IMG/VR virus record: IMGVR_UViG_3300045988_174823 | Source of the DNA: a virus | DNA length: 64,000 bases | Direction: 5' to 3' (one strand) | Shown: in pieces, positions 3,728 to 50,930 of the stretch | How the letters are laid out: each line of letters opens with the position of its first letter | Numbering within the stretch: the first letter of the stretch is position 1 | The notes under the pieces: model-generated | What the model saw: the letters and a program-made list of their open reading frames with translations, nothing else | Database searches by the model: none | Told to the model about the DNA's origin: nothing | Program-made: the position numbers and the translations under genes

Positions 3728-4354
3728 TTACGATACAGTGAACGTAGTGTTGGTCGTTACACTGAGTGTTACGCCTGTACCGTCCTGAGGAACATTGACG
3801 TTTTTCTTGTCGATGTTAAGATAAGGATCACCCGATGCCTGCTTGAGCGTGATCGTGGCAGTTTTAGTGCCTTTCGTAGTGGCAGTGATTTGCTGAGTAC
3901 GCTCCGAAATAGTTGTGTTCTTAGATGCTGTAAGCGTCAAAACGAACGCAAATTTCTTCGTTGCGCCAGGATCGCTCGGGATAGCTACGCCGGAAGTAGC
4001 ACTGGCACCATTAGCCTGGTAGCCGATCGATGCGACATCGGCGGTAATAATGCTTCCCGCACCTTTCGAGAACGTAATGGTGGCGGCGTTGGACATACCG
4101 TCCAATACAACCGGACCGCCATCTTTGGGAACTGATGCCCCAGATCCGTCGTCAAACGACACAAATTCAGCAGCAGCCTGTAAGACGGCCGAGAATGACT
4201 TGTTGGGGCTTACTCCAGGAGCGGTAATTACAAAATTATCCGTTTGGTTTAAGCGGTTGCCGAGATTGGCAGTTTTAGCTTTGAGCGTCAGCTCGGTATC
4301 ACCTGAGCCCGAACCAGGAGAACAGATGACGTAGCTTTTTGTTACATTAGCCAT
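3728..4354 (-). CDS. surface protein with two BACON/Ig-like repeats
   Basis: Start moved to the ATG at 4354 ('MANVTK'), because the track ORF extension to 4507 overlaps the upstream gene. Two repeats each end in '...N.T..ER...IT.TT....TITLKQ'-type strands. Confidence 0.55.
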   Translation of the reverse strand: MANVTKSYVICSPGSGSGDTELTLKAKTANLGNRLNQTDNFVITAPGVSPNKSFSAVLQAAAEFVSFDDGSGASVPKDGGPVVLDGMSNAATITFSKGAGSIITADVASIGYQANGASATSGVAIPSDPGATKKFAFVLTLTASKNTTISERTQQITATTKGTKTATITLKQASGDPYLNIDKKNVNVPQDGTGVTLSVTTNTTFTVS

Positions 4355-4376
4355 AGTTTTTTTTTTGTATGTGGAA

Positions 4377-4658
4377 TTATTCCACGTTAAACGAAGTATT
4401 TGTGTGTACATTATTTTGTCCGTACCAATCATTTTCCTGTGTAAGCCAAACGAACTGCTTCTCGATCTCCAAATAAGGACGTTCGCGCTTAAATAACACC
4501 TCGCCATTTAAGACAATCCGCTGTATGGTCGGCTTATCAGCTTGATAAGGCCAGATTATTTTGCCATTAAATACAACACGACTGATTTCTTCAGACGCCA
4601 CTAACTGGCGACCGTTAAAGATCAAGTCTGTTATTTTTTTATTGGCCATTTTCGTCAA
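4377..4658 (-). CDS. hypothetical tail-associated protein
   Basis: 93 aa with an internal triplicated 'hFNG+.h' motif (IFNGRQL / VFNGKIIW / VLNGEVLF). The start could instead be the ATG at 4649. Confidence 0.5.
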   Translation of the reverse strand: MTKMANKKITDLIFNGRQLVASEEISRVVFNGKIIWPYQADKPTIQRIVLNGEVLFKRERPYLEIEKQFVWLTQENDWYGQNNVHTNTSFNVE

Positions 4659-4866
4659 GTTTTACCTCGATGTACAAAATATTGTCGTTTATCATAGGCG
4701 CTTCTGTCACTACTTCAACACCTCGTACCGATTCCGACCGAACGCTTTTTGCGTTAATTTCGTTTTGAAATTTTTGTTCACTTTCATCGAAAATCTGCTC
4801 CGACCTCGCCAATTTCCCATCGGCGGTTTTTGAGTGAAGTAATCCGTATATATTGATCTCAGCCAT
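4639..4866 (-). CDS. hypothetical protein
   Basis: 75-aa ORF packed within the tail module. Confidence 0.45.
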   Translation of the reverse strand: MAEINIYGLLHSKTADGKLARSEQIFDESEQKFQNEINAKSVRSESVRGVEVVTEAPMINDNILYIEVKLDENGQ

Positions 4867-4871
4867 ATTGG

Positions 4872-5957
4872 TTATTCGATTATACCGTTAAAACGACCTG
4901 CTGCCCACGGTCCTGCGCTGCGGTAGCACTTGTAATTGCCCTTTCCCTCAACCGTCACTATTATCGGAAGCGCCATCGGTACATCAAAACCACCCGACGT
5001 TACGCTGTTGATAGTCATATCATCAGGAACACAGAGCCACAGGTATTCGTTAGCACCAACATCCACCGTAACTTCTCCGGCGGGAGATGGCTTGATAGGT
5101 TGCTGATACATGCCAAGAACGTCTGCTGATTCAATACTTTCCTTCGGTGAAGCATCGAAATACATATGCCTGTAAGCGTTTACCGTAACCGTTACGGTCT
5201 TAACAATGCCCTTTATTACGGCCGTTATTTCATACTCCTGCGTAGTACTGATGTTATCAGTGACGCTCTTTACATCAGGATCAGTAACGAGAACAGCATC
5301 ACCCTTTCGGACTTCAATCGAATCAGGCGTTATGGGTTGATCGTTAAACTTAGTCTCCCAAGCCAACGTGACCTCCGTCTCAACGTTTTCTTCGAAAATA
5401 TCGGGAATTGCTTGAGAGGTTAAGTCAGTGTATTGCGTATATACCACGTTGGCTAATTCATCAACGCTATCTTGCGAAGCGGCGTTGATATTTTCACGTG
5501 CTTGTTGCTGTTCGTTGGTCTTGAGTTCCTGTGCGATGTCAAACCGCACGGCTCCGATCTCCACCTCGCCATCAGCCGAATACGCTGGGATCATTACCGT
5601 TTGAACCTGCCAGTAGTTGGTATTCCAAAACAGTACAACGAAACCCACGTGAGTCTCATCAGTCGTCACCGTTATGGGGTTTAACTGGGCATCGACGAAC
5701 TTTCTGTAGGTAACGGTTTGATTGACCCCAACCTGAGACAGGTATGCAACACGAGCCGAAGGCGGTTCAATAGGTTCCGTTTCAGCGTCAGCTATACCAA
5801 CAATAGACGTGCTCATTGTTGTTTCAAGCTGCTGAACATAATCCAACAACGCCAACTCGTAGTTTTGCTGGTTGGGGACTTCAACCTTAGTCCCCTGCGG
5901 CCGTTCGTCGAGGGTTTGAAGGATAAGTTTCCGGACTTCGTTATAAGACAGTGGCAT
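4872..5957 (-). CDS. tail fibre / baseplate-distal structural protein
   Basis: Start set at the ATG at 5957 ('MPLSYNEVRKL'), 4 nt after the TAG of the upstream gene. The track extension to 6095 overlaps that gene. The call rests on position. Confidence 0.5.
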   Translation of the reverse strand: MPLSYNEVRKLILQTLDERPQGTKVEVPNQQNYELALLDYVQQLETTMSTSIVGIADAETEPIEPPSARVAYLSQVGVNQTVTYRKFVDAQLNPITVTTDETHVGFVVLFWNTNYWQVQTVMIPAYSADGEVEIGAVRFDIAQELKTNEQQQARENINAASQDSVDELANVVYTQYTDLTSQAIPDIFEENVETEVTLAWETKFNDQPITPDSIEVRKGDAVLVTDPDVKSVTDNISTTQEYEITAVIKGIVKTVTVTVNAYRHMYFDASPKESIESADVLGMYQQPIKPSPAGEVTVDVGANEYLWLCVPDDMTINSVTSGGFDVPMALPIIVTVEGKGNYKCYRSAGPWAAGRFNGIIE

Positions 5958-26599: not shown

Positions 26600-28087
26600 T
26601 TAGTTGGAAGCGCGACCGATGTTGATGATACGAACCATCTTCTTCGGTGCGTACAGGAACGGCGTACCGTACAGCAGCACCATGAAGCGGTATGCGGGCG
26701 ACAGAATCGCCAGGTCCATCTTCATCAGCGGAGCCAGCTGAGCGAACTCGATGACCTCGTTGTCGAACTGTACCAGGAACGCCTGGTCGCAGTCGGGCAG
26801 GAAGTAGTTGTTGTCACGGCACAGATCGCCGGCAGCGCCTGCATAGCCAAGTTTCAGCTCGGCCACCGAAATGTCGAAGATCGGGTAGAACTTGCTGTCC
26901 TTGGTACCGCCTTTCTTCGTGCGGTAAATGCGATAGCCCGTAGCCGGGTGCGCATTGTCCACGATCGAGAACTTGAGATCGACAGCCGATCCTACCGTAA
27001 CGACAACCGGGATCTCGTTAACCACCAGCGACGACTCACCGTGGCGGTTGATGGCAGCAACTGCGTAAACGTAGTCGCCAGCATCCTCCGAATTGAACTT
27101 CGAGGTCGTCACGCCGGGCATAACTGCAGTCGGAGTGTTGGTATCCCACGCGGGAGCAGCAGGCGACTTCGGATGCGTGGACTGAGCGCCAGCCATCTTG
27201 AACGGCGCCTTCTTGAAGAAGACATCGTAGTTGAGGCCGATGCGGCCGAACTGCGAGTCGAATGCCTGAACGCGCTGACCCATGATACCGGCGCTGGTCT
27301 GGGCGGTGTTAGGCTGGATGAACTTGTTGCCATAGAACGTCTTGACGAAGTCCGACAGAACGGCGGGGGGAGCGTACAGCTCGGTTCCGAGACCGTAGTT
27401 CTCGACGATCGAGTTGGCAGCGCTCTCGATGGGATCCTCGGTCAGGCCACGACCGCGAAGGTCGATCACGTTCTCGGAGTTGAGGTAAGCGTCCAGACCG
27501 CTCCATGCGTCCGACTGCAGCTGCTGAGCCAGCAGACCGTTGAACTCCTGCGGGATGATGTCCGAGTTGCCGTAGTACAGCGACTTGTTCAGCTTGCGGA
27601 GAATCCACAGCGTACCGTCCTTGATGGTACGCTCCATGATGTTGCCCACCATCGTGTTGACGAGGGTCATCTGGTGCGTAACGGACTTGGTAACGCCGAG
27701 ATACTTCACGAGCTGAGCCCGGCGGATGTAGATCGAGTCTTCCTCGTCGGGGAGTTCGCCCTCGTTGGTGAAGCCACCGCGGTCAGCACCATACGATGCC
27801 AGCTGGTTGTACTCCTCAACGGTGTTGTAGGCGGCCTTTTTCGGCAGGTTCTTCCAGAGAACGATGTCGCTCTCGCGGAACGTCAGGTGTTTCAGAGTAC
27901 GCTCCAGCGACTCCACCTTCAGCGGAGCACCCGAAGCATCGGTCAAGTTCGTCGTTTGACGACCCGTGATGTCGGTTGCTTCGAGGGCTTTGTTCAGCAT
28001 AGCGACCTCTTCCTGACTGGACGAGCCGTACTGGGCACCACGTGCTTGGATGCCATAGTCGGCAAGATTGATAGAAAGTCTGTCCAT
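26600..28087 (-). CDS. major capsid protein with an internal FN3/Ig-like insertion
   Basis: 495 aa, directly downstream of the protease-scaffold gene, with strong GC3 codon bias and a strong terminator. Residues about 305-405 ('GDYVYAVAAINRHGESS...GYRIYRTKKGG') look FN3-like. Confidence 0.7.
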   Translation of the reverse strand: MDRLSINLADYGIQARGAQYGSSSQEEVAMLNKALEATDITGRQTTNLTDASGAPLKVESLERTLKHLTFRESDIVLWKNLPKKAAYNTVEEYNQLASYGADRGGFTNEGELPDEEDSIYIRRAQLVKYLGVTKSVTHQMTLVNTMVGNIMERTIKDGTLWILRKLNKSLYYGNSDIIPQEFNGLLAQQLQSDAWSGLDAYLNSENVIDLRGRGLTEDPIESAANSIVENYGLGTELYAPPAVLSDFVKTFYGNKFIQPNTAQTSAGIMGQRVQAFDSQFGRIGLNYDVFFKKAPFKMAGAQSTHPKSPAAPAWDTNTPTAVMPGVTTSKFNSEDAGDYVYAVAAINRHGESSLVVNEIPVVVTVGSAVDLKFSIVDNAHPATGYRIYRTKKGGTKDSKFYPIFDISVAELKLGYAGAAGDLCRDNNYFLPDCDQAFLVQFDNEVIEFAQLAPLMKMDLAILSPAYRFMVLLYGTPFLYAPKKMVRIINIGRASN

Positions 28088-28126
28088 GATTCGGAATTGA
28101 TTATGTTATGGAAATTGTTTGGGTGT

Positions 28127-29668
28127 TTACTCTACTACCTCGTACCCGGTCTCAGCCTTGAGACGGGTAATGATGTTTTTGGGGAGACCGTCAGCAGGAC
28201 GCGCCTCAAACGCCAAAAGCGCATCGCCGTACTCTTTGTCGTAGCCTTTGGCGAACGATGCCTGGTCAAGCAGCGCAGCAACGGCACGGGGATTCTCGCG
28301 GAACGAGATACGAGTGGTGCTGCCACCCTTTTCGATGTCGCCCTTGTCGGCACCCTTAGCAAACGCACGGTCGATAACCGTAGCCGAGCGCAGCGATTTC
28401 GGACGCGGCACCTCGCTGCCGTAGCGTTCCAGTTTAGCGGCGAAGCCCTCAATAACCTCGGTCTGGCCTTTGACGACGTCCTCCAGTTCAGCAATACGCT
28501 TAGCGTCCTCAGAGCGTTTCTGGCGAAGATCGTTCACTAAGACGGCCGTAGCTTTGATGTACGACTTGAAGTCGTTACCAACACCCTGAATAGCTTTCAG
28601 GAGATCAGCGTTATCACCCTTTTTCATCTTGGCACCGTTCTTGTCGCACTGCTCAAAGCCTTCGTCGTCATCCTCGGTTTCTTCTTCAGATTCCTCCTTC
28701 TTGCCTGCCTTGGCATTACGCATGTTGGCGGCGTTGTGACGCGGCTCGTCATCATGGGTTTCGTCCTCCTCGCCCATTTGACCGTCGGCGTCATCACCTT
28801 TCTGCACGTCTTCGGCATCAAAAGCGTTGCCCTCGGGCGCAAGCCCCAAAGCGGCATATGCCTTCTCGATGTCCTCGGAAGTGATGGATTTGCGTTTGTT
28901 CATAACCGATATATTTTTAATTAGTGTGTACACTTCATGCGCGTTCGGTATTGTAATATTTGGAATATCACGGAAGATAGCTTCCATGACGGAAGATTTG
29001 GAAAACGTTTTTTTCGGCTGGCCATCGACTGACTCCGGCATTAACGCCGCACCGGATTCTGTGCTTACGGCCTTTTTCTCGGTTTTGCCACCGCGCTCTT
29101 CGGCATTATCCTCTTCTTCCTCCAAATCCACCTTTATTCCGTCAGCGTCAATCTCCCCCTTTATAATATTCACAAACGTATGTGGATTCTTAGGCATATG
29201 TGTTACTGCAACACCTGTTATTACAGCCTTAACGATCTTGTTGTAAAGGGGTGATTTCTTGTCGTTAGAACCGCGCTTCAGAACCTTTCCTTCGATGGAA
29301 TACCCAAGACGACGCGTTTTACTGTCTTCCTCAAGGGTTTTAGCAAGTTCATAAACTTCATTGGCCATAGGCGATGAAGCATACAAATCGCTTTCAATCC
29401 AAAGCCCCTCGGGGCGGAGTTCGACCTTTGACGGCTCGCCAATAATAGCAGCTGGAGAGTTCTTGGCTTGGTGATGCCAATTAACCATGCCTGAATTCTT
29501 CAGCGGCTCAACATCAAAACCAGAAGGATCCAGATACTCACCATCAGCGTCACGATCCATAGTTGAAGCGATACCGCCAATACGCATAACAGGTTCTCCT
29601 GCTTCGTTCGTAGCTTTTTCAATGCGTCCAATAGGACACCAAAAATTGAATCTATCGTCCTTAAACAT
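28127..29668 (-). CDS. prohead serine protease (HK97/S78-like) fused to an acidic scaffolding domain
   Basis: The N-terminus 'RIGGIASTMDRDADGEYLDPSGF...VNWHHQ...IIGEP...GLWIESDL...LGYSIEGKV' matches the S78 pattern. The C-terminal half is Glu/Asp/Lys-rich and coiled-coil-like. Confidence 0.7.
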   Translation of the reverse strand: MFKDDRFNFWCPIGRIEKATNEAGEPVMRIGGIASTMDRDADGEYLDPSGFDVEPLKNSGMVNWHHQAKNSPAAIIGEPSKVELRPEGLWIESDLYASSPMANEVYELAKTLEEDSKTRRLGYSIEGKVLKRGSNDKKSPLYNKIVKAVITGVAVTHMPKNPHTFVNIIKGEIDADGIKVDLEEEEDNAEERGGKTEKKAVSTESGAALMPESVDGQPKKTFSKSSVMEAIFRDIPNITIPNAHEVYTLIKNISVMNKRKSITSEDIEKAYAALGLAPEGNAFDAEDVQKGDDADGQMGEEDETHDDEPRHNAANMRNAKAGKKEESEEETEDDDEGFEQCDKNGAKMKKGDNADLLKAIQGVGNDFKSYIKATAVLVNDLRQKRSEDAKRIAELEDVVKGQTEVIEGFAAKLERYGSEVPRPKSLRSATVIDRAFAKGADKGDIEKGGSTTRISFRENPRAVAALLDQASFAKGYDKEYGDALLAFEARPADGLPKNIITRLKAETGYEVVE

Positions 29669-29700
29669 GTTTACGGCGTTATTGTTACCAACATTATACT

Positions 29701-29804
29701 TGTAATGATCACTATTGGAAACGACGGTAATGTCCTGGACTACCTCGAATATCCTTCCGTTATTTTATCGCCGATTCCGGGATACAGAGAGTTGGTGAGT
29801 GAAT
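29701..29804. repeat. inverted repeat IR-L of the fibre inversion switch
   Basis: Reverse complement of 30595-30698, matching at 103/104 positions. The single mismatch is at 29787. Confidence 0.95.
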
Positions 29805-30178
29805 TTCCATTCTTTATAAAAGAAATGGCAGCTAGCGGCGAAACCAATAAGATCTCTTTTGACAGGAAGATATCTCAAAAAGCCAAACTATACGTTACTG
29901 GTAAAGTACACGCTACCCAAAGTATATTTAGTGATATTATGCTAAACATACCACTTACCCCTGTGAATATGAGTGTTAGTAATGGAAAAGGAGCGTTAAT
30001 AGATATATCGAGTGCTTTTTTTGATTCAATTGGCGACAGCATTTCCGCACGTATTTTAGTAACAAGCGTTGATCTATCGCCGGATGGTATTAGTGCCTTT
30101 AATATTGTTTTACAGACTAAGAATATTTTGCCTAATGATATGTATTACTCAACATTGAATATATATTGTAATGAATAA
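29705..30178 (+). CDS. promoterless alternative C-terminal cassette of the fibre gene (silent in this orientation)
   Basis: The first 34 aa ('MITIGNDGNVLDYLEYPSVILSPIPGYRELVSE') are encoded by IR-L and duplicate an internal fibre segment. The remaining 124 aa are a diverged homologue of the fibre C-terminus. Confidence 0.8.
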   Translation: MITIGNDGNVLDYLEYPSVILSPIPGYRELVSEFPFFIKEMAASGETNKISFDRKISQKAKLYVTGKVHATQSIFSDIMLNIPLTPVNMSVSNGKGALIDISSAFFDSIGDSISARILVTSVDLSPDGISAFNIVLQTKNILPNDMYYSTLNIYCNE

Positions 30179-30179
30179 A

Positions 30180-30211
30180 TTAATCCCCCCTCATGACGAG
30201 GAGGGGATTAA
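30180..30211. terminator. bidirectional hairpin between the two convergent cassettes
   Basis: TTAATCCCCCCTC-atgac-GAGGAGGGGATTAA. It is flanked by A/T on both sides and centred within about 5 bp of the midpoint of the invertible segment. Confidence 0.6.
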
Positions 30212-31678
30212 TTAATAATTAGAGTACAGTTTCAAAAACATATAACTTGAAGAAGTTGAGTCTATATTTCTTCTTTGAACCAAGAGGTTTAATCCAACAG
30301 CGCCAGTTGTACCCACACGCGTCTTAAAACTTACTACCAAGAGCCTAATGGTTCCAACAGTTTTATAATCCGACGATGAAGATAAATGCACCGAACTTAC
30401 TTCTACTAAAACTCCCTGTCCAGTGTCAGGATCAATGTTAGGAACAGTAAGCGGTATATTATAAAACGCGTCTGAAGTAGGATCGCTAGTTTGCCGTATT
30501 GATCCACATAACATTATTTTCGCATTGCGGGGAATTTCTCTGTCGAAGTTTACAGTAACCAAGGCTCCAGTTGTAGTGCCTGTAATTAACGACCATTCAC
30601 TCACCAACTCTTTGTATCCCGGAATCGGCGATAAAATAACGGAAGGATATTCGAGGTAGTCCAGGACATTACCGTCGTTTCCAATAGTGATCATTACATA
30701 CGACGGGCCTTCGGTAATGAGTGTGCCATCATCCCTGACTGGATACATTGTTGCTGAGAAGATTCGGTCGCTGCCAGATTGTAAGCATTGCACAAATCCG
30801 CTCATAAACGCTACGGCAGGAACCTTAAAAAGGGGAAAATACGCCTCAATTAAGGCAGTTGGATTTGTAACAAGGATCGCCTTTATTTTGCCAACTGCTT
30901 TATCACCCCAATCAGCGCTGATAATTTGTTTACCTATTCGTTCACCTCCTTCAATGGCTATGACGTCTATTCCTGAACCGCCAGCACCAATTTGCGTCCA
31001 TTTAATAAGAGTCGTTATGGCGTTTCCTATATAAAAATTATTACTTCCTACGTCTTGTGCAAAATAGTTGATTTGTCCAGCGCTTACCTTTTGCAATATG
31101 CCGATCAAGGCTTCGCTCGTAGGTTTTTGATCGCCTCCAGCGCTGTAGAACGGAATTATTCCTCCAACGGGGAGTTTTTGTACTCGGGCGTTGTTAACAG
31201 TGGCTTTAAAGTCTGTAATATTCAACGGAGTCATATCGGCATCCATACGAAATGCCAAACCGTTATTTACAATCGTATCAATCCATTGCTGGTCGGTTAA
31301 TGCCGTAGGAGGATCTTGTGTAAAGCCGTTTCGGCTGTATATAATATTGTCAACAATATTAAAGACAATGCCATAACACGTAGATCCTGCCCAACATACA
31401 AAACCATTGTAGGCTGCACCGTTGGTAATAATTTTCACTGCGCCATTACCAACTATACGATACATGTTTTGAAACGCCTGGAGTATAGTGCTCGCCGACG
31501 TAATCGAGGTAGCGCCAGTAGTCCGATTGACAAAACCCGTAAGTTTGGCCTGCATGGCATTAAACAGATTGGCAATCTGCCGCGACGTAGCCTTTTCGGT
31601 AGCCGATACCTGAAATTCTTCGTTTCCAGTGAGAGTCGAACGCTTCGTCAGCTTCGACATGTCTATAAAAGTAGGCAT
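30212..31678 (-). CDS. fibre / receptor-binding-type virion protein with a switchable C-terminal domain
   Basis: 488 aa. IR-R lies at codons for 'VMITIGNDG...KELVSE'. The C-terminal 127 aa are encoded inside the invertible segment. Confidence 0.7.
   Translation of the reverse strand: MPTFIDMSKLTKRSTLTGNEEFQVSATEKATSRQIANLFNAMQAKLTGFVNRTTGATSITSASTILQAFQNMYRIVGNGAVKIITNGAAYNGFVCWAGSTCYGIVFNIVDNIIYSRNGFTQDPPTALTDQQWIDTIVNNGLAFRMDADMTPLNITDFKATVNNARVQKLPVGGIIPFYSAGGDQKPTSEALIGILQKVSAGQINYFAQDVGSNNFYIGNAITTLIKWTQIGAGGSGIDVIAIEGGERIGKQIISADWGDKAVGKIKAILVTNPTALIEAYFPLFKVPAVAFMSGFVQCLQSGSDRIFSATMYPVRDDGTLITEGPSYVMITIGNDGNVLDYLEYPSVILSPIPGYKELVSEWSLITGTTTGALVTVNFDREIPRNAKIMLCGSIRQTSDPTSDAFYNIPLTVPNIDPDTGQGVLVEVSSVHLSSSSDYKTVGTIRLLVVSFKTRVGTTGAVGLNLLVQRRNIDSTSSSYMFLKLYSNY
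30595..30698. repeat. inverted repeat IR-R of the fibre inversion switch
   Basis: Reverse complement of 29701-29804. Confidence 0.95.
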
Positions 31679-36804: not shown

Positions 36805-37608
36805 TTACACTTCTACAGCGTCAAAGTCAATATCAAATTTCTTATATACAATGCGCAACTCGGGCACACCATTGATCGGCTTCTTCTTTTCATCAACACG
36901 AGCGTTAAGCGGCCAACGCTTCAAGATGATATCATGCGCACGTTGAACGCGCTCACGACGTTCGTACACATCCTGGAGACCGCCACCTTGTGTAGCTTCC
37001 TTGTTCATCTTACTCTGGAGCAAGAACCGTACGAATCGCGCATACACGATGCCGAGATACATACATTTTAACGAATAGTCGATATCACATTTCAACTCCA
37101 ACCGCTCATCAAAGTCCAACTCTAACGTGCGAAGACCCTTGAACACGATAAGGTGTGGAATACCGCCGTATTTGAAACGCGGACTAACGTCGATGCAATT
37201 CCAATCAAAAGCACTTTTGCCCATGGTGCCATATTCGAAGTCGGTTTTCATCACCTCTCGGTCGAATTCGTTGAAGAATTCAGCCAACTCTTCATGGGTT
37301 TTCAACGACAGTCCGCATTTGGCTTCACCGTCAATTGAGTAGAAGAAGTTGGCGATATCGTCATCCATCACCACAACGGGATACCCCTCGCGCAAGTAGG
37401 TATTCTTGCAGAAATTGACTACGTAGCTGTAGCCACGATTCGAGGCTGGAAGCACAATGAGGCGTTCGCGCTCATGCCCGGCTTCAACATATTTTTCAAC
37501 ATCCTCTTTTTCTACCACGATGTGGTAATCCACGCCGCCCTTTTTCAACAATCGAGTCGTGACGCATTTAGGGCGGTTTTTAGACACGACAAAGAATTGA
37601 CAGTTCAT
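36805..37608 (-). CDS. GT-A-like glycosyltransferase (paralogue of 55500-56315)
   Basis: Start placed at the ATG at 37608, 2 nt after the upstream TGA; the track ORF starts at 37638. DxD-like 'VVVMDDDI' is present. Blocks shared with the paralogue are 'KCDIDYSL...QGGGLQDVY...RWP' vs 'KEDFALAC...AAGGCSVY...TFP'. Confidence 0.45.
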   Translation of the reverse strand: MNCQFFVVSKNRPKCVTTRLLKKGGVDYHIVVEKEDVEKYVEAGHERERLIVLPASNRGYSYVVNFCKNTYLREGYPVVVMDDDIANFFYSIDGEAKCGLSLKTHEELAEFFNEFDREVMKTDFEYGTMGKSAFDWNCIDVSPRFKYGGIPHLIVFKGLRTLELDFDERLELKCDIDYSLKCMYLGIVYARFVRFLLQSKMNKEATQGGGLQDVYERRERVQRAHDIILKRWPLNARVDEKKKPINGVPELRIVYKKFDIDFDAVEV

Positions 37609-37610
37609 AC

Positions 37611-38291
37611 TCAAAATGGTAAGTCGCCCTCGTACCAAATTTCCTCAGGCGGGTTCTGTTCTATAAAACGTTGATAATTGTCCAGTGTACTTTCTAACGA
37701 TGGATAAAACCTCATGAACAACTCCCACTTAACGTCAAACATATCATCACACGATACGCGGCGTTTCATCAGTAGGCTTTCGCTATTATAGCACTGCACG
37801 CAGACCTGACGACGGCCTCGTAGTACGTACGAATAGGGAAAGTCGCGATAGTATTCCGCACCAGACGCTGTATTATACACCACATCATGGATAAACTGGT
37901 TGAACGGGTGTCCTGCGCCGAGAGGTGCCAGTAACGTATAACCGGGATTGCGGTGCATAAACTTCCGCAAATGATCGCGAAGCGCTTGTTCGGCGAAATT
38001 AAGGCCGTCATTCCCGAATTTGGCGCGTAAGTACGTATAGACGCTCTCATAATTACAGTCCTTGGAATGGGCCTGAAAATCGCTACAACGGACATTTTCT
38101 AACTCCAGGTCCAGACAATCCATGGCTATACCCAGAAAATTGTACAGAAGCCGCTGCTCTGAAACGCGCTTTGGGTCGCTATCTACAGTAAGCACCCGAA
38201 CGTCATATTCGGGTGCTACTAAAACGTGACAAGCACTCATCAGGAGATCACCCGCGTGTGGCTCGACACAGAGGTATTTTATTTTTCCCAT
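37611..38291 (-). CDS. PIG-L/LmbE-like putative deacetylase (divergent)
   Basis: 'YLCVEPHAGDLLMSACH...DVRVLTV' compares with the AHPDDE motif, and 'GAGHPFNQFIHDVV' with the HPDH motif. Confidence 0.4.
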   Translation of the reverse strand: MGKIKYLCVEPHAGDLLMSACHVLVAPEYDVRVLTVDSDPKRVSEQRLLYNFLGIAMDCLDLELENVRCSDFQAHSKDCNYESVYTYLRAKFGNDGLNFAEQALRDHLRKFMHRNPGYTLLAPLGAGHPFNQFIHDVVYNTASGAEYYRDFPYSYVLRGRRQVCVQCYNSESLLMKRRVSCDDMFDVKWELFMRFYPSLESTLDNYQRFIEQNPPEEIWYEGDLPF

Positions 38292-39238
38292 GGCCGTTTG
38301 TATATCTTCTCGACGCAGGGGCCGTCCTTCGATACGTCCTCAGCCATACGGCGAATTTCTGGCGTGATAGGCGGGAGCGTTTTCTTACCCATCTTATCAG
38401 GCAGGAAACCGACACGGACGCTGACATGTGTACACCCCTGACACGGACGGAACCGACGATCGTTGTTGTACAGCATCACGCGGGCAGCATGAAAGCGCGG
38501 ATGGTTCCAGAGGTCTTCGATAGGCATGTCGTGGATGTTGGCGATAGGGTACTCGCCGCGAAAGTCGTCGCAGCACAAGCACACCTGGCCGTTCCAACGC
38601 ACATCCAGTTCGCGGAACGGAAAAGTACATCGTTTGTTGTTGAACGAGTCGTCGAGCGGGAACGCTGCGCCACAGTGGTTAGCCAGACGACGCGTCATCT
38701 TGTTGGTATCGTCTTCGGCGATAGGCGGCAACAGACAGATACGGCGGCCCTGCTTGGGGTAGTAGTACGGAACGCCCGGTTCCAGCGTAACGACGTTGTA
38801 TTTCTCGATGTCGATTTTCTCGACGAAATTCCAGTCACCCTTAGCCGTATAGCAGTCCACCAGAATATCATTCATGCCGGCTTCAAAAAGACGGTCTAAA
38901 TATTCCGACGTATCCTTGGCGTGGTTCATACCGTACCCGTTGCTGTACATATGAAATACGGCTTTGGGCAGGTGTTTACGGAACGTAGCCACGATGTCGA
39001 TGAATGCGGGGTTGAGCGTCGGTTCGCCGTGCATAGCGAATACGAACTTACATTTCCACCCTACGCGGGCTACCTCTGAAGCGATACGCTCGGCGGTTTC
39101 AACGGTCATGAAATTCCACGGCTTAGTGCCTTTTTCGCGCATGCCGTGGAGACCGCAAAACGAACAACCCAGATTACACCCCTCCGTCGGTTCAATCTGC
39201 ATAGTGAACGGAGGGTCTTGTACGATTTTGTTTTTCAT
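38279..39238 (-). CDS. radical SAM enzyme with C-terminal SPASM/twitch-like Cys cluster
   Basis: 'EGCNLGCSFCG' matches CxxxCxxC. The C-terminus carries 'CTFPFRELDVRWNGQVCLCCDDF...CQGCTH'. Confidence 0.8.
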   Translation of the reverse strand: MKNKIVQDPPFTMQIEPTEGCNLGCSFCGLHGMREKGTKPWNFMTVETAERIASEVARVGWKCKFVFAMHGEPTLNPAFIDIVATFRKHLPKAVFHMYSNGYGMNHAKDTSEYLDRLFEAGMNDILVDCYTAKGDWNFVEKIDIEKYNVVTLEPGVPYYYPKQGRRICLLPPIAEDDTNKMTRRLANHCGAAFPLDDSFNNKRCTFPFRELDVRWNGQVCLCCDDFRGEYPIANIHDMPIEDLWNHPRFHAARVMLYNNDRRFRPCQGCTHVSVRVGFLPDKMGKKTLPPITPEIRRMAEDVSKDGPCVEKIYKRPWEK

Positions 39239-41268
39239 TATTTGGTAACTTTAATGTTAAGTTTCACGTTCTTTAACTTTGGGTTCTTAAACTGGCGTTT
39301 GATAGGCTTGATGAAAGCGCGGGTTGCAGGGTCCCAATCAAAGCCATCAGGAACGTGGTTGACTGTACACCGGCAATTGTGAACCACAATTCCATCGGCA
39401 ATGTAGCTTTCATCTTCGGCAACTGAAATATTGTACAATTTAGTGTACTTTTTAGATCTCGGAACTTGTTTAATGTATAAAACCTTCACACCACGCGAAA
39501 CTATTTGCCCCCGGTGATTTTTGAACAGCCGTTTCAGGCGGTTGTAAACCATATCGCCGTGGTTGTTTATCTCATCTTCAGTGAAGCGGAATGTCTCATA
39601 GCCGTAACACTCCAAAATGTCCTTATCGCGGTTGGAATCGTATTCCGGATCGTTGTGCCATTTTTCGCCGTCAGCCTCCAAAACAATCTTGAGATCGGGA
39701 ATCAGTAAATCGGGGAAATACCCCACAACATCGTTGCGGAACTTTCCGTTATTTTTCAAGAACACCCCTGTCTTAGCTTCAACTCCTAACGACTTACACA
39801 GATACTCCAACTTGCGCTCGATGAACGACCGTTTCTTACCATTGGTAGAATTAGTCTTCTTCAGCGCCTCAGCCATCCAAGGATACTCACCTTGATATTT
39901 ATCTTCGATAGCTTTTCTTGCTCTGGTGGTAAGTTTCTGACGATCGACAGCACTCATATTGGCATAACGAACAGCCATCTCTTCTTTGACTTTCTTACTC
40001 ATGTAAGAACGGAACTCTGTGTCTTGCCATTGCGAGACGCACTGTTCGCTCCGGTGACAAGCTATACACAGCCCCCTCTCCAAAAGAGTATCGCTGGCTG
40101 AAACGTATATTGGCATAAACGAACCGCATTTTTCACAACAAACACCTTCGATTGTTATCAAATCGCCTGTTTTCAATGAAGCAGCCTCTCGCCATTCACC
40201 GTTTGAAAGAATTGGATGATTTCCTGTTATACGACGCACCTTCCGTACCTTTTTACGCCCTAAAAGGTTTTTGACGGCATAATAGATGTCGTACAGGGGT
40301 TCATCCTTATGATCGTGAATAATCACTTCCGTAACAGGCCTAAACCTCCCTCGGTGAGTCAAAACCATATCCCCTTTCTTTAGAGAAGATATGTTTCTCC
40401 ATCCGTTGATGGTGTACACCTTTGTAGCCGGATTATTGAAACAATAGGGGTGCGTTGGGTCAATCGTAGGGAGCCATTCTGCCACCTTACGACCGATGTT
40501 GTTACCGTTAGCGATAAGGTCTGCCAAACGGAACAGTTTCGGTTTCGAGGTAGGGTCTTCGGGGTCTTCTAAGTACAACTCCCGGCACTTAGCGCACGCG
40601 CCTGGATAGACGTCGAAATACACTTTGGCGTCAGGACCGTGTTGCTTGAAAATACTTTCGGCACGGCCCACGTTGTAGGCTTCGTGTAGAAGGTAGTACG
40701 CAATACGCAGCCAATCGCGTCCCCAGTCTTGGGTAAGGTTTCCGAGTTCGCTGGCTATATACCGGGCTCCCTTACGGAGTTGAACAGCTTGAATGGCCTT
40801 GTCTTTTATTTGTTGACGTATTTCTGATTGTTGACGGAAATTCGATTTGAGTACAGCGTTGCGTGTTCCGGTGACGATACGATTACCAAGCGACGTGATG
40901 TCGGTATAGGCACGATTCTTGAGGTAGTTGAGCGCGTTTTCTTCCTGTTCGGTAAGCGGAACAAAGTTTCCCGATTTCAAGAACTGGAGAAACTGCTTGT
41001 AATTCATCTTCTTGGCGCGAGTGTCGCCAATTGCTTCGGCCAGTATTCCAAACAAAAAGGCGTGTTCGATGATGCCCTTTGAGTTCTTGTACTTATCGAC
41101 GTTGACCCCTGAAGCTACCAAGATATCAATTTCAGACTGCGTGAGGTAGTCCAATCCGACGTGCTTGGCAATAAAGAGATATTGCCAACGCCGGAGAATA
41201 CCGACCATGTCGTCTATTTGACGGTTGTTGAAAATCATAACTTTTCGACGTCTTTTCGGGGAATCCAT
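39238..41268 (-). CDS. Mu-F / SPP1-gp7-like head morphogenesis protein interrupted by an intein
   Basis: The exteins give '...YPGACAKCRELY...PTHPY|CRCTVNHVP', which reconstitutes the Mu-F family CxxC and HPxCRC motifs. Confidence 0.75.
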   Translation of the reverse strand: MDSPKRRRKVMIFNNRQIDDMVGILRRWQYLFIAKHVGLDYLTQSEIDILVASGVNVDKYKNSKGIIEHAFLFGILAEAIGDTRAKKMNYKQFLQFLKSGNFVPLTEQEENALNYLKNRAYTDITSLGNRIVTGTRNAVLKSNFRQQSEIRQQIKDKAIQAVQLRKGARYIASELGNLTQDWGRDWLRIAYYLLHEAYNVGRAESIFKQHGPDAKVYFDVYPGACAKCRELYLEDPEDPTSKPKLFRLADLIANGNNIGRKVAEWLPTIDPTHPYCFNNPATKVYTINGWRNISSLKKGDMVLTHRGRFRPVTEVIIHDHKDEPLYDIYYAVKNLLGRKKVRKVRRITGNHPILSNGEWREAASLKTGDLITIEGVCCEKCGSFMPIYVSASDTLLERGLCIACHRSEQCVSQWQDTEFRSYMSKKVKEEMAVRYANMSAVDRQKLTTRARKAIEDKYQGEYPWMAEALKKTNSTNGKKRSFIERKLEYLCKSLGVEAKTGVFLKNNGKFRNDVVGYFPDLLIPDLKIVLEADGEKWHNDPEYDSNRDKDILECYGYETFRFTEDEINNHGDMVYNRLKRLFKNHRGQIVSRGVKVLYIKQVPRSKKYTKLYNISVAEDESYIADGIVVHNCRCTVNHVPDGFDWDPATRAFIKPIKRQFKNPKLKNVKLNIKVTK
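39376..40443 (-). mobile_element. intein (356 aa) carrying a Zn-ribbon and a Vsr/DUF559-type PD-(D/E)xK nuclease domain
   Basis: It starts with 'CFNNPATKVYTINGW', has block B 'ITGNHPIL', and ends 'IADGIVVHN' followed by +1 Cys. The insert carries 'CCEKCG...CIACH' and 'YFPDLLIPDLKIVLEADGEKWHNDPEYDSNRDKDILECYGYETFRFTEDEI'. Confidence 0.8.
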
Positions 41269-47551: not shown

Positions 47552-47836
47552 TTAGCGTGAATATACGTAGGTCTTACGGTCAGCCCACACGAAATTATAA
47601 CTCATATCCCCCTGAGGATACTCGGTAATGGTAATACCATCAGCAGTGGTTTCCCGCTCGATGCGCCATCCTGCCTGCTGTTGACCTGTGCCAATAGGCG
47701 CATAACCGCGGTAGATAACGTCGCCCCCTGAGGCGTCAACAATCGGTTTCGGCATAGCATCGCTCAGCAATTGGACAATGGGCGCGGTGTTTTTCTCGTT
47801 ACTCGTCATGGTGTATTGCTTTTTGTAAGTATTCAT
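47552..47836 (-). CDS. hypothetical small virion-module protein
   Basis: 94-aa ORF overlapping the portal gene 3' end by 38 nt. Confidence 0.45.
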   Translation of the reverse strand: MNTYKKQYTMTSNEKNTAPIVQLLSDAMPKPIVDASGGDVIYRGYAPIGTGQQQAGWRIERETTADGITITEYPQGDMSYNFVWADRKTYVYSR

Positions 47837-49574
47837 CGAATGCAGCTACGAGAGGATTGGACTCGCGTGCCTTCATAGTTTCTTCTTGATCACCCTCAGC
47901 GTAAAGGTCAAACGGATTTCCTGGCTGAGCGGTATCGTCTTCTTCCTCTTCGTCGCCAGCCACGGGTTGATCAGCAGGGCCTCCAGCTTCCATCCCCATA
48001 CCAGCAGCCTCTTCAAACGGATTGCCTCCGCCCATACCGCCCATTGCGGCCTGTTGCTGTTGTTGCTGCTTGGCGCTGATGGCTTGCTGTATAACAGAGT
48101 TTTCGATAGTATCGCCACCCTTTTCTTCGCCGATAGCCGGGAGGTCCCACTTCTCGCGAATTTCGTCCACGGTCTGGAAAGCCTGGAGACGTTTGATGTC
48201 CATATCCAGTTCCTCAGAGATGGTCATTCCGTTGAGGCCCATGAATACGAACTCGAAGTCGGGGTTGATTTGCTCGACGATGAACTTGTTAACCTTACGT
48301 TGGATGAATTTCAGCATCGGGTAAAGACCCTTGTCCTTCGACTGCTCCATGCGCTGCTTTTGGCCGTCGCCGAACGTTAGGCCACTGCCATTGGAACGCG
48401 AAATATCCCAGCCAATTTCCGTAGGGTCAATGCAGAATACTGCACAGGCGATTTTGATCAGATATTCCATCCACGAGTTATACTCCATATCGCGGTTGTT
48501 CTTCTGAAGGTCAACCCAGTCGATATCTCCCTCAACGACAGGCGTCTTCCATGACTGCATAACACCCGATATCATGGCCTGCCATTGCTGCTTGAACTGC
48601 TGAAGCGAGGCTTCGTTCACGTTACCTTTGATACGCAGAAGACCTTTCGGAGCCGAACCCTGTGAGAAGAAGCGGCGGTTGTACTCGTCGCCCCAAAGCA
48701 TCGATGTCACAACGTTGATTAACTCTTCCAACTCAGAGTTTCCGTAACCGTTAGCGTAAATCGACGTGGTCGGATTGCGAATTCCAAAGCACAACTCCCA
48801 TGGGTAGAACTGCGCTACCTTGGCCGTCTGGTACACCTGGACGTAGGCCGGATAATAGCCATCAACCTTAGGTCCCCAGTTCTGGCGATCGTCCATCATC
48901 GCTCCTTCAAAGTAGGGGTTGTTGTACTCGCCATCGAAATACGATTCCGCCAGGCGGAATGTAGCGGCATCAACGGCCTGGAAGCGGACCAGTTTGCCGC
49001 GGCGGTTGCGAATGCACTCAAACGTCATCTGATCGAACGTTAGCGAGTCGTCCACAATCTTACGTATAAATTCGTCAAACTCGTCGCCGTCCCACATAGC
49101 GGTATCGCCACAGTTGAGGATGAAGTCGGTGATGGAAGACGCAATTTTGCGGTCCTGCGTGTCCATCTTCTGCTCTTGGCCGAACTTAGGCTTGCGTCGA
49201 ATAACAAATCCCGTTGAATAGCGGTCGGCCTGCGGTTCGGCGAAGTCAGCTATCTGGTTTTTACGGGTCTTGATAATCGAATTAATAATGGGGGTGCGAC
49301 TCATCCGGCGTAACGTTTCGTACGAAAGCGAAAACGGCTTATCCTTATATCCTAAAAACGAGTTGAACTCCAAAGGATCGATCAGATATGCCTTCGGGGC
49401 AACGTTAGCAGGCTTGTGTTGCTGGTTTAATATTTCAGCAGCTTTGAGTATATCAGACGGGCTCTCGCTGCGCATCGCACGCTCTAACAACAGCGATTTG
49501 CGTATCGTCAAAGCCTGCATGGCGCGTTCCACCGATTCCAATCTTTCTTTCACACCGGACATAATTGTTTTCAC
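47799..49574 (-). CDS. portal protein
   Basis: 591 aa. It carries the segment 'TLRRMSRTPIINSIIKTRKNQIADF...', an acidic Gln/Glu-rich C-terminus, and lies in the head module. Confidence 0.65.
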   Translation of the reverse strand: MKTIMSGVKERLESVERAMQALTIRKSLLLERAMRSESPSDILKAAEILNQQHKPANVAPKAYLIDPLEFNSFLGYKDKPFSLSYETLRRMSRTPIINSIIKTRKNQIADFAEPQADRYSTGFVIRRKPKFGQEQKMDTQDRKIASSITDFILNCGDTAMWDGDEFDEFIRKIVDDSLTFDQMTFECIRNRRGKLVRFQAVDAATFRLAESYFDGEYNNPYFEGAMMDDRQNWGPKVDGYYPAYVQVYQTAKVAQFYPWELCFGIRNPTTSIYANGYGNSELEELINVVTSMLWGDEYNRRFFSQGSAPKGLLRIKGNVNEASLQQFKQQWQAMISGVMQSWKTPVVEGDIDWVDLQKNNRDMEYNSWMEYLIKIACAVFCIDPTEIGWDISRSNGSGLTFGDGQKQRMEQSKDKGLYPMLKFIQRKVNKFIVEQINPDFEFVFMGLNGMTISEELDMDIKRLQAFQTVDEIREKWDLPAIGEEKGGDTIENSVIQQAISAKQQQQQQAAMGGMGGGNPFEEAAGMGMEAGGPADQPVAGDEEEEDDTAQPGNPFDLYAEGDQEETMKARESNPLVAAFDEYLQKAIHHDE

Positions 49575-49599: not shown

Positions 49600-49923
49600 T
49601 CAACACAACAGTTTCAAAATGTCGTTCCGCGCTGTTTTACGAATTATCAATGCCTGATGAAGAAGGTCGCCCCATACCGCTATCTGGTAACCATTCCACG
49701 TGTAATAATCCGTTTGATCGTCGTACGAGCCATTCCATTCACCGTCGTGGCGTATGTCAGCGACGAGGCGTTTAAAACGCGCTGTTTCTTCGGTGGTAAG
49801 GGGTGATATGAAAGTGCCGACGACTACTAATCGTGCGGCACTTGTGGAAAGATCATCGGCCAAAATCTGAAAGTCGATGCCCATAAAATCGCCCGTTTCC
49901 AACGGCGTGTGAAAGGTTATCAT
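49600..49923 (-). CDS. hypothetical protein
   Basis: 107-aa ORF with a 4-nt overlap upstream. Confidence 0.45.
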   Translation of the reverse strand: MITFHTPLETGDFMGIDFQILADDLSTSAARLVVVGTFISPLTTEETARFKRLVADIRHDGEWNGSYDDQTDYYTWNGYQIAVWGDLLHQALIIRKTARNDILKLLC

Positions 49924-50930
49924 TTGCCTATCAATTTACAAGCTCTTGGTTCAAATGTAGAGCGTTGTTTACCTTCACCAATCTTCATTTTCCAGTACTT
50001 TTGATACTCACACAGCCACATTTCCACCTGGTGAAGTGATATCTCGCCCGACGGCGTGACGTAATACCCCGATTCAAGTTTGTGCCAGTGTAGGTACGGA
50101 AAATCGCCAAACGAAGATAACGCTGCCTGTGCCTCATCACGCAGGCGATATATACCGTCAATTTGACGCTTCAACGATGGGAACACCAACCGCAGCCCTA
50201 TGGACGCACCAGGCCCCACATTGGTATAGTCATCCTGGGTAAAGTGCATGAAACGGCGATAGGTATAGCGCGGTATGTAGGTGAAGTCTTGGTAGAATTC
50301 GTGAGCGATAAATGTCGCCGACGAAGGTAACTCCTGAAGGAACTTGATAATCTGCCCAGGATCGGTAGCCGTCAACACCGTCCGCATCAGTTTACCTAAC
50401 TTACGATGAAGCGTAGGCACAACCAAATGCGTGTAGCAGTAGTCGCGCGGTTTTCCAGGTGTGGCCATCGAATTGATGAGGTAGGCCGTGGTGTAGGGGT
50501 TGTTGCCTGTGGCACGGTACGACGTTATCATTTCCGCAAAGCGGTCCTCGTCGTATTGGTTATAATCCGGAATGCCCGCTCCCCAACCGTACTTTTCACG
50601 AGCATATTCAAACGTTTCAGGGTTGTTAAAATACCGGAACACCATCATCTTCCAAACCAGATTCGTCAGCGTTAATTCGTCATCCAGCAAGATATTACGT
50701 ATCTGCCACTGCGAATTACGATCCAGTTCACGATACACATTGGTGAATTTGTAATCGCGTAATATAGGATCATCAGTCCACGGACGCGGTTTCTGATCCA
50801 GGAACCGTCGCTTCCATATCATTTGGCGCTCAAACATCGTGCGGAAGAACTCGTGATAGTGTTCCTCGCTGACGTCAAGTGCGGCGTCAGGTAATTTATC
50901 AGCCCAAGGGTAATGATCAAATTTCGCCAT
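49920..50930 (-). CDS. putative DNA base (thymidine) hypermodification protein, aGPT-Pplase / 5-hmdU-DNA-kinase helical-domain family
   Basis: 'ERQMIWKRRFLDQKPRPWTDDPILRDYKFTNVYRELDRNSQW' matches my memory of the family's signature. That signature was recalled, not searched. No P-loop is present. Confidence 0.45.
   Translation of the reverse strand: MAKFDHYPWADKLPDAALDVSEEHYHEFFRTMFERQMIWKRRFLDQKPRPWTDDPILRDYKFTNVYRELDRNSQWQIRNILLDDELTLTNLVWKMMVFRYFNNPETFEYAREKYGWGAGIPDYNQYDEDRFAEMITSYRATGNNPYTTAYLINSMATPGKPRDYCYTHLVVPTLHRKLGKLMRTVLTATDPGQIIKFLQELPSSATFIAHEFYQDFTYIPRYTYRRFMHFTQDDYTNVGPGASIGLRLVFPSLKRQIDGIYRLRDEAQAALSSFGDFPYLHWHKLESGYYVTPSGEISLHQVEMWLCEYQKYWKMKIGEGKQRSTFEPRACKLIGK

Follow-up and report, generated by a model that had tools for sequence, protein, structure and literature searches.

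The locus described here belongs to a phage genome of about 99 kb, of which we analysed a 64-kb window (64,000 nucleotides, about 64% of the genome). A gene for a fibre-like virion protein converges there with a silent ORF, and each of the two carries one arm of an inverted repeat. The features, in window coordinates, are:

28127..29668, minus strand: head maturation protease gene, the fixed outer flank of the left repeat arm.
29701..30698: invertible segment, 998 nt with both arms, 790 nt of it unique sequence between the arms.
29701..29804: left repeat arm, 104 nt, at the start of the silent cassette ORF, with a private G at 29787.
29705..30178, plus strand: silent cassette B ORF, 157 aa, with its unique part at 29805-30178.
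30185..30207: G+C-rich hairpin with a 9-bp stem, between the convergent cassette ends.
30212..30594, minus strand: cassette A, the expressed C-terminal domain of about 127 aa, predicted to be all-beta.
30212..31678, minus strand: expressed fibre-like virion protein of 488 aa, made of a constant body and cassette A.
30595..30698: right repeat arm, 104 nt, inside the expressed gene, with the mismatch partner at 30612; it encodes roughly aa 328-362 of the expressed protein, VMITIGNDGNVLDYLEYPSVILSPIPGYKELVSEW.

A repeat search of the window finds the pair of 104-nt arms that an initial annotation of this DNA had reported, with an inverted match at 103 of 104 positions (99% complementary). Using a 14-nt seed over the whole window, this pair is the sole repeat of at least 30 nt, the other pair being 33 nt at 73%, and by our own estimate the chance of a 103/104 match among about 2e9 position pairs is negligible. 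The one mismatch (G at 29787, T at 30612) is the single R/K difference described before: the silent arm has an AGA codon (Arg) where the expressed arm has AAA (Lys). The arms had also been placed entirely in coding sequence. That is so for the right arm, which is fully contained in the 488-aa ORF 30212-31678(-), but the left arm begins 4 nt (TGTA) ahead of the ATG of the 157-aa ORF 29705-30178(+) and otherwise lies within it. At a measured 104 nt the repeats are indeed longer than classical invertase sites, but length alone is not anomalous: the C segment of P1/P7 has flanking repeats of about 0.6 kb with the cix sites at the repeat ends. The real anomaly is the missing enzyme together with the lack of a conserved site, rather than the length of the repeat.

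Inverting 29701..30698 in silico produces an intact, in-frame ORF of 485 aa. Cassettes A and B are paralogues with 31% identity, and relatives P0053-P0064 carry B attached to the same body; across dozens of protein clusters, both the A and the B forms of the C-terminus occur on one body type. The start codon of the protease and the ATG of the silent cassette are 36 nt apart. The hairpin is terminator-like, and it remains 3' of whichever cassette is expressed.

The 488-aa protein matches no Pfam or PHROG family, and a fold search returns only uncharacterised phage proteins plus weak tail-fibre matches. In the structure model, the C-terminal region is predicted with a pLDDT of about 80-93 over aa ~355-488, and the last ~125 residues are modelled as a discrete beta-sandwich domain, which is presumably the part that touches the host. 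We rejected the assignment of a function from structure; the model is poor beyond the C-terminal domain (pLDDT 57.5) and has no PDB match at E<=0.001. The protein stands as fibre-like, with the family unassigned. Because the gene adjoins the head protease and capsid genes and the protein belongs to no assigned family, we only infer its role as a tail fibre, and likewise its role in receptor binding. Silent cassettes are intact in all loci examined. The excess of non-synonymous change is equal in silent and expressed cassettes, which indicates that both are exposed to selection, and the switch protein evolves under strong diversifying pressure.

The switch inverts in nature, as isomers in sibling strains show. 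Cassette B is expressed at locus L144, and cassette A at L114 and L092. The flanks of L144 are 100% identical to those of L114/L092 over 3,584 and 2,090 nt, and the 992-nt segment is also 100% identical, only as the reverse complement; compared to the window, the L144 flanks have 98.0% and 99.3% identity. A second isogenic isomer pair (L094/L097) carries another repeat family, in 98,845-bp contigs from sibling assemblies, and L107 and L108 are in opposite states with a third repeat family, so that natural isomers are present in three of the four repeat families introduced below. The isogenic pairs come from independent samples. The contigs in which B is expressed were assembled at k=141 and k=127, lengths that exceed that of the repeat, which implies that their orientation is backed by reads. 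Orientation is scattered over haplotypes. A search for the window's exact strain in flipped form did not find it, the best match being 92%. Six contigs end precisely at the repeat, the repeat at L119 has decayed to 59 nt at 86%, and about 19 loci have no cassette at all. The locus is a real, reversible domain-swap switch.

The two arms evolve in concert, presumably by gene conversion. Nine genomes have 21 variable sites in the repeat, and at 18 of these the two arms agree in each of the genomes; the arms differ at 0-2 positions within one genome and at up to 19 between genomes. The repeat is not conserved from genome to genome, its diversity being about that of the remainder of the gene (pi 0.098 versus 0.090; 0.152 versus 0.168 at third codon positions).

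Sister phages present the same architecture with four unrelated repeat sequences, of 104, 96, 52-66 and 28-30 nt. The protease is 85-99% identical among phages that use different repeat families. The initial annotation had proposed comparing the repeats of related phages for a conserved core, and that comparison finds none. No 5-mer is common to all four families, the longest common substrings between families are no longer than in shuffled controls, and none of the families includes a perfect dyad of at least 6 nt. A 9-nt partial dyad around CCGATTCCGGGATA, spotted by eye in family 1, was rejected as it is lost in family 2. Families 1 and 2 do have GAATATCC and CCGATTCCRGGATACA in common. The stretch that they share encodes EYP and PIPGY, a protein motif also retained in distant homologues that do not have this repeat; the sharing could reflect a residual DNA site instead of a protein constraint. 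Among the four families compared, the property common to working repeats is arm-to-arm identity alone. The family 4 repeats, at 28-30 nt, are rather short for homologous recombination to be efficient and fall in the size range of site-specific sites, which counts against a homology-based reading. All six family 4 loci are in one state, in a small sample, and the loci with repeats of 61-104 nt are mixed.

In the window, we translated all 121 ORFs of at least 100 aa from six frames and scanned them against Pfam (E<=0.01). None of them matches PF00239, PF07508, PF00589, an IS110/Piv-type or a DDE family, and the earlier statement that the 64 kb encode no recognisable recombinase is thus borne out at the level of HMMs. 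For the remainder of the genome we used a close relative (168225), which has a fibre locus with the same switch and whose remaining 35.3 kb closes a circle of about 99 kb. The HMM search beyond the window that had been suggested was run on these 35.3 kb and on the strain-specific extra segments of 12 relatives, and it detects no site-specific recombinase in either. Across relatives, no neighbouring gene co-occurs with the cassette, and genomes with and without it have the same neighbours and similar sizes. The small neighbours p174 and p138 were tried as a hidden recombinase and rejected; they are present with or without the cassette. A diversity-generating retroelement, considered since the cassettes differ mainly at the first and second positions of codons, was also rejected. 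We find no match to an RVT family in the window or in the remaining 35.3 kb of the relative, and no direct repeat in the window, so there is neither a reverse transcriptase nor a template repeat, and the substitutions are of mixed spectrum and spread over about 310 nt. The three explanations left by the initial annotation have fared differently. A recombinase elsewhere in the genome is now unlikely, with none in the sequence of the relatives; a host invertase acting in trans is weakened by the four unrelated, non-conserved repeats; and homology-driven inversion with gene conversion gains support from the concerted arms, the unrelated repeats and the isomers.

The capsid protein of the phage is nearest to those of B. 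thetaiotaomicron phages, of Bacteroides DAC/SJC myophages and of SPO1/SP-10-like phages, and the window encodes a BACON domain. Our host genome scan yields just one weak match, to a Bacteroidales MAG, and a megablast of 10 kb against annotated phages yields none. The sole tblastn match of the fibre protein is cr108_1. A crAss-like identity was nevertheless rejected, given the affinities of the capsid and the fact that only the N-terminal fibre module is shared. The phage encodes a 5-hmdU kinase and glycosyltransferases, from which its DNA is probably hypermodified. It is common in human gut metagenomes (319 collection blocks index one of its proteins), and it looks like a virulent phage.

The C-terminal domain is encoded twice, by divergent cassettes placed tail to tail on either side of the hairpin, and the same 104 nt of coding sequence stands ahead of each cassette in opposite orientation. 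In the mechanism that we propose, recombination from arm to arm would invert the segment of about 1 kb and fuse the body in frame to the other cassette. Such an exchange would need identity between the arms, with no dedicated invertase or specific DNA site, and would be done by general, homology-dependent recombination. Genes for a RecA-family protein (48.9 bits, cut-off 27), an Mre11/SbcD-like protein and a Rad50/SbcC-like protein form a contiguous module, and this module and UvrD are conserved in relatives of all repeat families. The phage's own RecA-family and Mre11-/Rad50-like proteins would be the most plausible agent; host RecA or RecA-independent template switching are possible alternative agents. 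Heteroduplex repair or gene conversion during the exchange would keep the arms identical. Both the homology-driven mechanism and the identity of the enzyme are what we infer from these observations, and homology-driven, invertase-free inversion with gene conversion is the best explanation and probably the correct one.

The homology-dependent exchange could also proceed with no strand-exchange protein, through template switching or annealing of the nearby repeats, as reported for the pneumococcal spnIII locus, where inversions between 85-bp and 333-bp repeats persist without CreX and without RecA (PMC6620402). The 104-nt arms of the phage locus are comparable in length, with just 790 nt between them. 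Nothing in the sequence opposes this route, but the conserved RecA/Mre11/Rad50 module makes an enzymatic one available, and we consider it unlikely that the version with no strand-exchange protein is the one at work. It is a sub-variant of the best explanation, and it shares all the predictions tested with the RecA-type version. A more distinct proposal is that the host supplies a site-specific invertase in trans, which recombines a short core within the repeats, the long identity being a by-product of shared coding sequence. Bacteroidales genomes contain many site-specific invertases, and the host clues point to Bacteroidales; the 28-30 nt of the family 4 repeats and the occurrence of GAATATCC and CCGATTCCRGGATACA in both families 1 and 2 also fit. 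However, very close phages use four unrelated repeats that have no 5-mer in common and lack dyad symmetry, the repeat is not conserved between genomes, and what families 1 and 2 share encodes the EYP/PIPGY protein motif that distant homologues keep. Arm homogenisation moreover spans nearly all 104 nt, which exchange at a fixed point would not give, and, more speculatively, the probably hypermodified DNA could hinder sequence-specific host enzymes. We regard a host invertase as quite improbable.

It is more doubtful still that the phage encodes a recombinase of an unrecognised family among its ORFs of no assigned function. Most of the phage's ORFs are without a Pfam or PHROG match, and HMM scans see described families only, which leaves room for such an enzyme; but it would need to act on four unrelated sequences, no nearby gene is restricted to cassette-bearing genomes, neighbours and genome sizes are alike with or without the cassette, and the concerted evolution of the arms would be left unexplained. 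Finally, the locus might hold no active switch at all, just a leftover duplication whose orientations are fixed polymorphisms or choices of the assembler. The six contigs that break at the repeat do show that assemblers struggle there, and the missing flipped form of the window's exact strain, the decayed L119 repeat (59 nt, 86%) and the about 19 cassette-less loci point the same way. Against this, there are isogenic isomers with 100% identical flanks from independent samples and contigs of k=141 and k=127 that span the repeat; the arms stay identical while their sequence drifts between genomes, the silent cassettes are intact and under selection, and orientation is scattered across haplotypes. 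We find this last reading hardly credible.

Among known systems, the Mu G segment with Gin, the P1 C segment with Cin and the e14 element with Pin have an adjacent serine invertase, dyad sites of about 26 bp and an enhancer to which Fis binds. The phage switch is like them in that inversion gives a constant N-terminal body either of two C-terminal cassettes, and in that the cassettes are tail to tail in a segment bounded by inverted repeats in coding sequence. It is unlike them in having no serine recombinase (PF00239/PF07508) in the window or in the relatives' remaining sequence, and no short, dyad-symmetric conserved sites, its sister strains using unrelated repeats. Unlike the Rci shufflons and Bacteroidales Tsr systems, it has no PF00589 gene in the same sequence and no short repeat core in common. 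At the sap locus of Campylobacter fetus, a programmed inversion that depends on RecA and on no invertase uses conserved 5' coding repeats, about 600 bp long, to carry a segment with the promoter from one complete gene copy to another. Both are programmed inversions on coding repeats, through general recombination in C. fetus and, as we propose, in the phage, but the phage exchanges a C-terminal domain inside one gene and its repeats are 30-104 nt.

In the spnIII (hsdS) locus, inversions on coding repeats of 85 and 333 bp swap specificity domains independently of the site-specific recombinase, whereas the CreX tyrosine recombinase is required for a 15-bp repeat, the residual inversions being RecA-independent (PMC6620402). 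The long repeats of spnIII resemble ours as coding inverted repeats of comparable length that swap a domain, but spnIII is a bacterial restriction-modification locus with CreX, and ours is a phage gene for which no known recombinase family is found. An Anabaena cyanophage has a segment of about 30 kb between repeats of 400-700 nt whose sequence is poorly conserved from one phage to another, its mechanism being open (bioRxiv 10.64898/2026.02.14.705889). As in that cyanophage, herpesvirus segments and plastid repeats, both orientations coexist with no proven site-specific enzyme; those cases flip large gene blocks and leave proteins unchanged, whereas here the repeats are in frame and the terminal domain changes. 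Intragenic invertons and the Bacteroidales Mpi and Tsr systems are found in bacteria, where the repeats are short and dedicated invertases act on them (PMC9881135). The phage switch shares the ecosystem of the intragenic invertons and the recoding of a protein by inversion inside a gene, but no Mpi/Tsr-type enzyme or site is found here. Our literature search finds no description of this phage switch.

That phages switch host recognition by inverting DNA is textbook knowledge, but the textbook cases are tied to dedicated invertases and specific sites. Our results suggest that, for a phage of the virulent type, general recombination between two identical coding repeats may be enough to swap a domain reversibly. 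A broader proposition, about which we are evenly divided, is that a widespread lineage of human-gut Bacteroidales myophages carries a recombinase-free, sequence-agnostic plug-in switch for its host-recognition domain, in which phage recombination flips any alternative C-terminal cassette with tens to ~100 nt of inverted identity to the expressed gene, conversion homogenises the arms, the switching rate may depend on how long the repeat is, and strains gain, lose and exchange cassettes. If homology-driven inversion is what operates here, searches keyed on an invertase gene or a conserved site would miss such switches, and new ones could evolve in recombination-proficient phages by the duplication of a short in-frame stretch beside a captured cassette, an origin that would fit both the independence of the four repeat families and the cassette gains and losses observed. 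Engineered phages could then carry a switchable receptor domain with no added enzyme, and the marked arms would offer a natural system in which to study short-repeat recombination during phage replication. With a phage this common in the gut and a protein under such strong diversifying pressure, the switch probably matters for the dynamics between phages and Bacteroidales.

The switch gene encodes a 488-aa fibre-like virion protein with a constant body and a swappable C-terminal cassette, of which A is expressed in the window and B is silent.

29701-29804: left repeat arm, 104 nt, opening the 157-aa ORF
29705-30178, plus strand: 157-aa ORF, cassette B, with the left arm at its start
30185-30207: G+C-rich hairpin where the 488-aa and 157-aa ORFs converge
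30212-31678, minus strand: 488-aa ORF, containing the right arm
30595-30698: right repeat arm, 104 nt, within the 488-aa ORF

The arms are complementary at 103 of 104 positions around a spacer of 790 nt, and a whole-window repeat search found no other long high-identity repeat in the 64 kb. Their sole mismatch (29787 G versus 30612 T) specifies Arg in the silent and Lys in the expressed arm; repeat search and ORF reading thus bear out the inverted repeat and R/K difference described in the initial annotation. Inverting 29701-30698 in silico fuses residues 1-328 in frame to cassette B and yields an intact 485-aa protein. Cassettes A and B are paralogues that have diverged to 31% identity (E 2e-16). 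In all repeat families, the silent cassette starts directly 3' of a conserved ACTTGTAATG (window 29694-29707; loci L103, L107, L099) and therefore has its own ATG, 36 nt from the start codon of the divergently oriented protease gene. If transcribed, the "silent" cassette might be translated independently.

The repeat-bounded segment does invert in nature. In a set of over 80 close homologues, one and the same N-terminal body is joined to either an A-type end (…VSEWSLITGT…LKLYSNY) or a B-type end (…VSEFPFFIKE…NIYCNE), the latter being the window's silent cassette. Locus L144 (ERZ27306739, on a contig of 98,867 bp) expresses B, and two independent samples (L114 and L092) express A; their flanks of 3,584 and 2,090 nt are 100% identical, and the 992-nt repeat-bounded segment is 100% identical solely as the reverse complement. 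The flanks of the L144 strain are 98.0% and 99.3% identical to the window. The sibling assemblies L094 and L097 (both contigs of 98,845 bp) provide a second inverted pair, around a different 96-nt repeat, and L107 and L108 show opposite states with a third repeat type. B-expressed contigs were assembled at k=141 and k=127, which is longer than the repeat, and we infer that their orientation must be read-borne. Six contigs of ~100 kb (L098, L120, L122, L139, L142, L143) terminate exactly at the repeat within the switch gene, as expected where assemblers face an unresolved repeat, so "complete" circular assemblies of these phages tend to break here. Among the homologues, no exact flipped isomer of the window's strain turned up (best match 92%), and flipping in this strain is therefore deduced from its siblings.

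The initial annotation had recognised no recombinase in the 64 kb and had left three explanations: a recombinase elsewhere in the genome, a host invertase acting in trans, or homology-driven inversion with gene conversion. A Pfam scan (E<=0.01, six frames, four batches) of the window's 121 ORFs of at least 100 aa found no match to serine, tyrosine, IS110/Piv-type or DDE recombinase families, which upholds the first observation at the HMM level. Since contigs bearing homologues of the 488-aa protein, of which there are many, run 96-101 kb, the window does not span the whole genome, and the remainder was tiled from IMG/VR contig 168225, a close relative of 98,824 bp. Three of its loci overlap and merge without mismatch; they match the window ends at 95% and 92% and add 35.3 kb beyond the window, closing a circle of about 99 kb. 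Scanning all ORFs of 90 aa or longer, on either strand of this region, gave no site-specific recombinase among the matches listed (for one batch, to E = 0.0038, four families being weaker). Twelve further relatives have segments of 450-1,260 nt missing from 168225; the ORFs in these are homing endonucleases (GIY-YIG/NUMOD3; HNH inside an intein) or diverged Rad50 copies, and no recombinase was seen among them. The proposed HMM search of the remaining genome, as read from 168225 and the extra segments of the other 12 relatives, thus returned no site-specific recombinase.

We compared the repeats, as had also been suggested, across about 55 fibre loci of very close phages (adjacent protease 85-99% identical). 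The second cassette is absent at about 19 loci, and the repeats fall into four families.

Repeat families among the fibre loci
Family 1 (the type seen in the window): repeats of 104 nt
Family 2: repeats of 96 nt, occupying the codons used by family 1
Family 3: repeats of 52-66 nt, at a different domain junction from families 1 and 2
Family 4: repeats of 28-30 nt, at family 3's junction with different nucleotides

The comparison revealed no conserved core: no 5-mer is common to all four families, their longest common substrings are not above shuffled controls, and no family contains a dyad of at least 6 nt. In nine family 1 genomes, 18 of the 21 variable sites within the repeat have the same base in both arms in every genome; the arms differ at 0-2 positions within one genome, and the genomes differ from each other at up to 19. 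The mean pairwise difference between genomes is 0.098 in the repeat versus 0.090 in the remaining gene (0.152 versus 0.168 at third codon positions).

A site recognised by a sequence-specific enzyme should stay constant from genome to genome, and crossing over at one fixed point would leave the sequence on either side unhomogenised. Here the repeat shows no extra conservation over the rest of the gene, yet the arms are broadly homogenised, the reverse of the pattern expected from a sequence-specific enzyme, and we consider it unlikely that a host invertase drives the inversion. That an unrecognised phage enzyme does so is more doubtful still, as no gene adjoining the switch is confined to cassette-bearing loci. 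The arm pattern is the product expected of repeated homologous exchange with gene conversion. Homology-driven inversion with gene conversion is the best-supported of the three explanations, and probably the right one, given the concerted arms, four unrelated repeats, and a repeat that is not conserved. The agent of exchange would be phage RecA-family machinery, host RecA, or RecA-independent template switching. The lineage encodes a contiguous recombination module of a RecA-family protein (48.9 bits versus a cut-off of 27), an Mre11/SbcD-like nuclease and a Rad50/SbcC-like ATPase, and also a UvrD helicase; module and helicase are both conserved whatever the repeat type, in the relatives covering that region.

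The layout and outcome are those of the Mu G, P1 C and e14 P switches, but a search for the enzyme and site that define those systems found neither. Functionally, the closest precedents are programmed inversions on long repeats without an invertase. Inversion at the C. fetus sap locus is RecA-dependent. In pneumococcal spnIII, long repeats invert without CreX and without RecA (PMC6620402). Inverted repeats also isomerise virus and plastid genomes, including a recent cyanophage case whose mechanism is open (bioRxiv 10.64898/2026.02.14.705889). We found no description of an invertase-free receptor-domain switch in such a phage in open-access papers and preprints.

All six loci with the shortest repeats (28-30 nt; L099, L102, L123, L125, L127, L130) express the same cassette, and among loci with 61-104-nt repeats both states occur; in this small sample, dependence on repeat length may be the cause. 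In L119, probably a frozen switch, the repeat has decayed (59 nt at 86%, gene positions 1043-1101). This decay, and the missing second cassette in several near-identical strains (L090, L091, L115, L117), indicate that switches are gained and lost within the lineage. L107 and L108 share 98.2% identity over the invertible segment (positions 4328-5212) and just 87-91% in the flanks; horizontal transfer seems to carry the two cassettes together.

The phage occurs commonly in assemblies from the human gut. Its capsid protein is nearest to the Bacteroides thetaiotaomicron myophages DAC/SJC (48%), then to SP-10/SPO1-like phages; a crAss-like affiliation was rejected, its sole link being the fibre N-terminal module. 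That module (window 31210-31667, aa 4-157) is 36% identical to a protein of crAss-like phage cr108_1 (Steigviridae; NC_055878.1 22971-23444), which suggests that unrelated phages sharing the same hosts exchange fibre modules. A hypermodification module (49920-50930(-), 36805-37638(-), 38279-39238(-)) comprises a 5-hmdU DNA kinase (PF18723, E 4.5e-52), a TET-associated glycosyltransferase (TAGT) and a radical-SAM/SPASM enzyme, with a second TAGT match within 41750-63526; the phage DNA probably carries hypermodified thymidine, like SP-10-like phages. The window encodes a BACON domain and inteins. Inteins with homing endonucleases (DUF559, LAGLIDADG, HNH) occupy several large genes (window 39238-41268(-), 56335-59052(-); L004, L049:12414-15284), the PolIII-alpha-type polymerase is intein-interrupted in some relatives, and free-standing GIY-YIG/NUMOD3 endonucleases vary between strains. 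The portal gene (47799-49574(-)) lies about 20 kb from the protease/capsid genes (26600-29668(-)), an unusual split of the head module by modification genes and large unknown ORFs. There is one tRNA-Gln (anticodon TTG, 61288-61359(-)).

The genes for the head maturation protease and the major capsid protein follow immediately downstream of the switch gene, whose product may sit on the tail or on the head. No Pfam or PHROG family matches this protein. Taken as a whole, its AlphaFold model is poor (pLDDT 57.5), with the swapped C-terminal ~130 residues predicted confidently as an all-beta domain and a low-confidence linker (residues 345-353) inside the repeat-encoded peptide. Fold searches gave no significant match to a solved structure; the significant matches are uncharacterised phage proteins only, with weak tail-fibre matches ranking beneath. 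Between the closest relatives, differences by codon position are 22/11/2 in cassette A and 7/3/0 in silent cassette B, and nearly all changes fall at positions 1 and 2, constant body and silent cassette included (window 30212-31678(-), 29805-30178(+); L087, L089, L092). No reverse transcriptase or template repeat was found to explain this bias. Cassette A has dN 0.144 versus dS 0.017 and the constant part dN 0.037 versus dS 0.0; dN/dS is about 0.2 in the protease next to the switch gene. The excess of dN over dS fits a host-contact protein. In every genome the silent cassette is intact, and silent cassettes have the same substitution pattern as expressed ones; by implication, each of the two is expressed frequently enough for selection to act on it.
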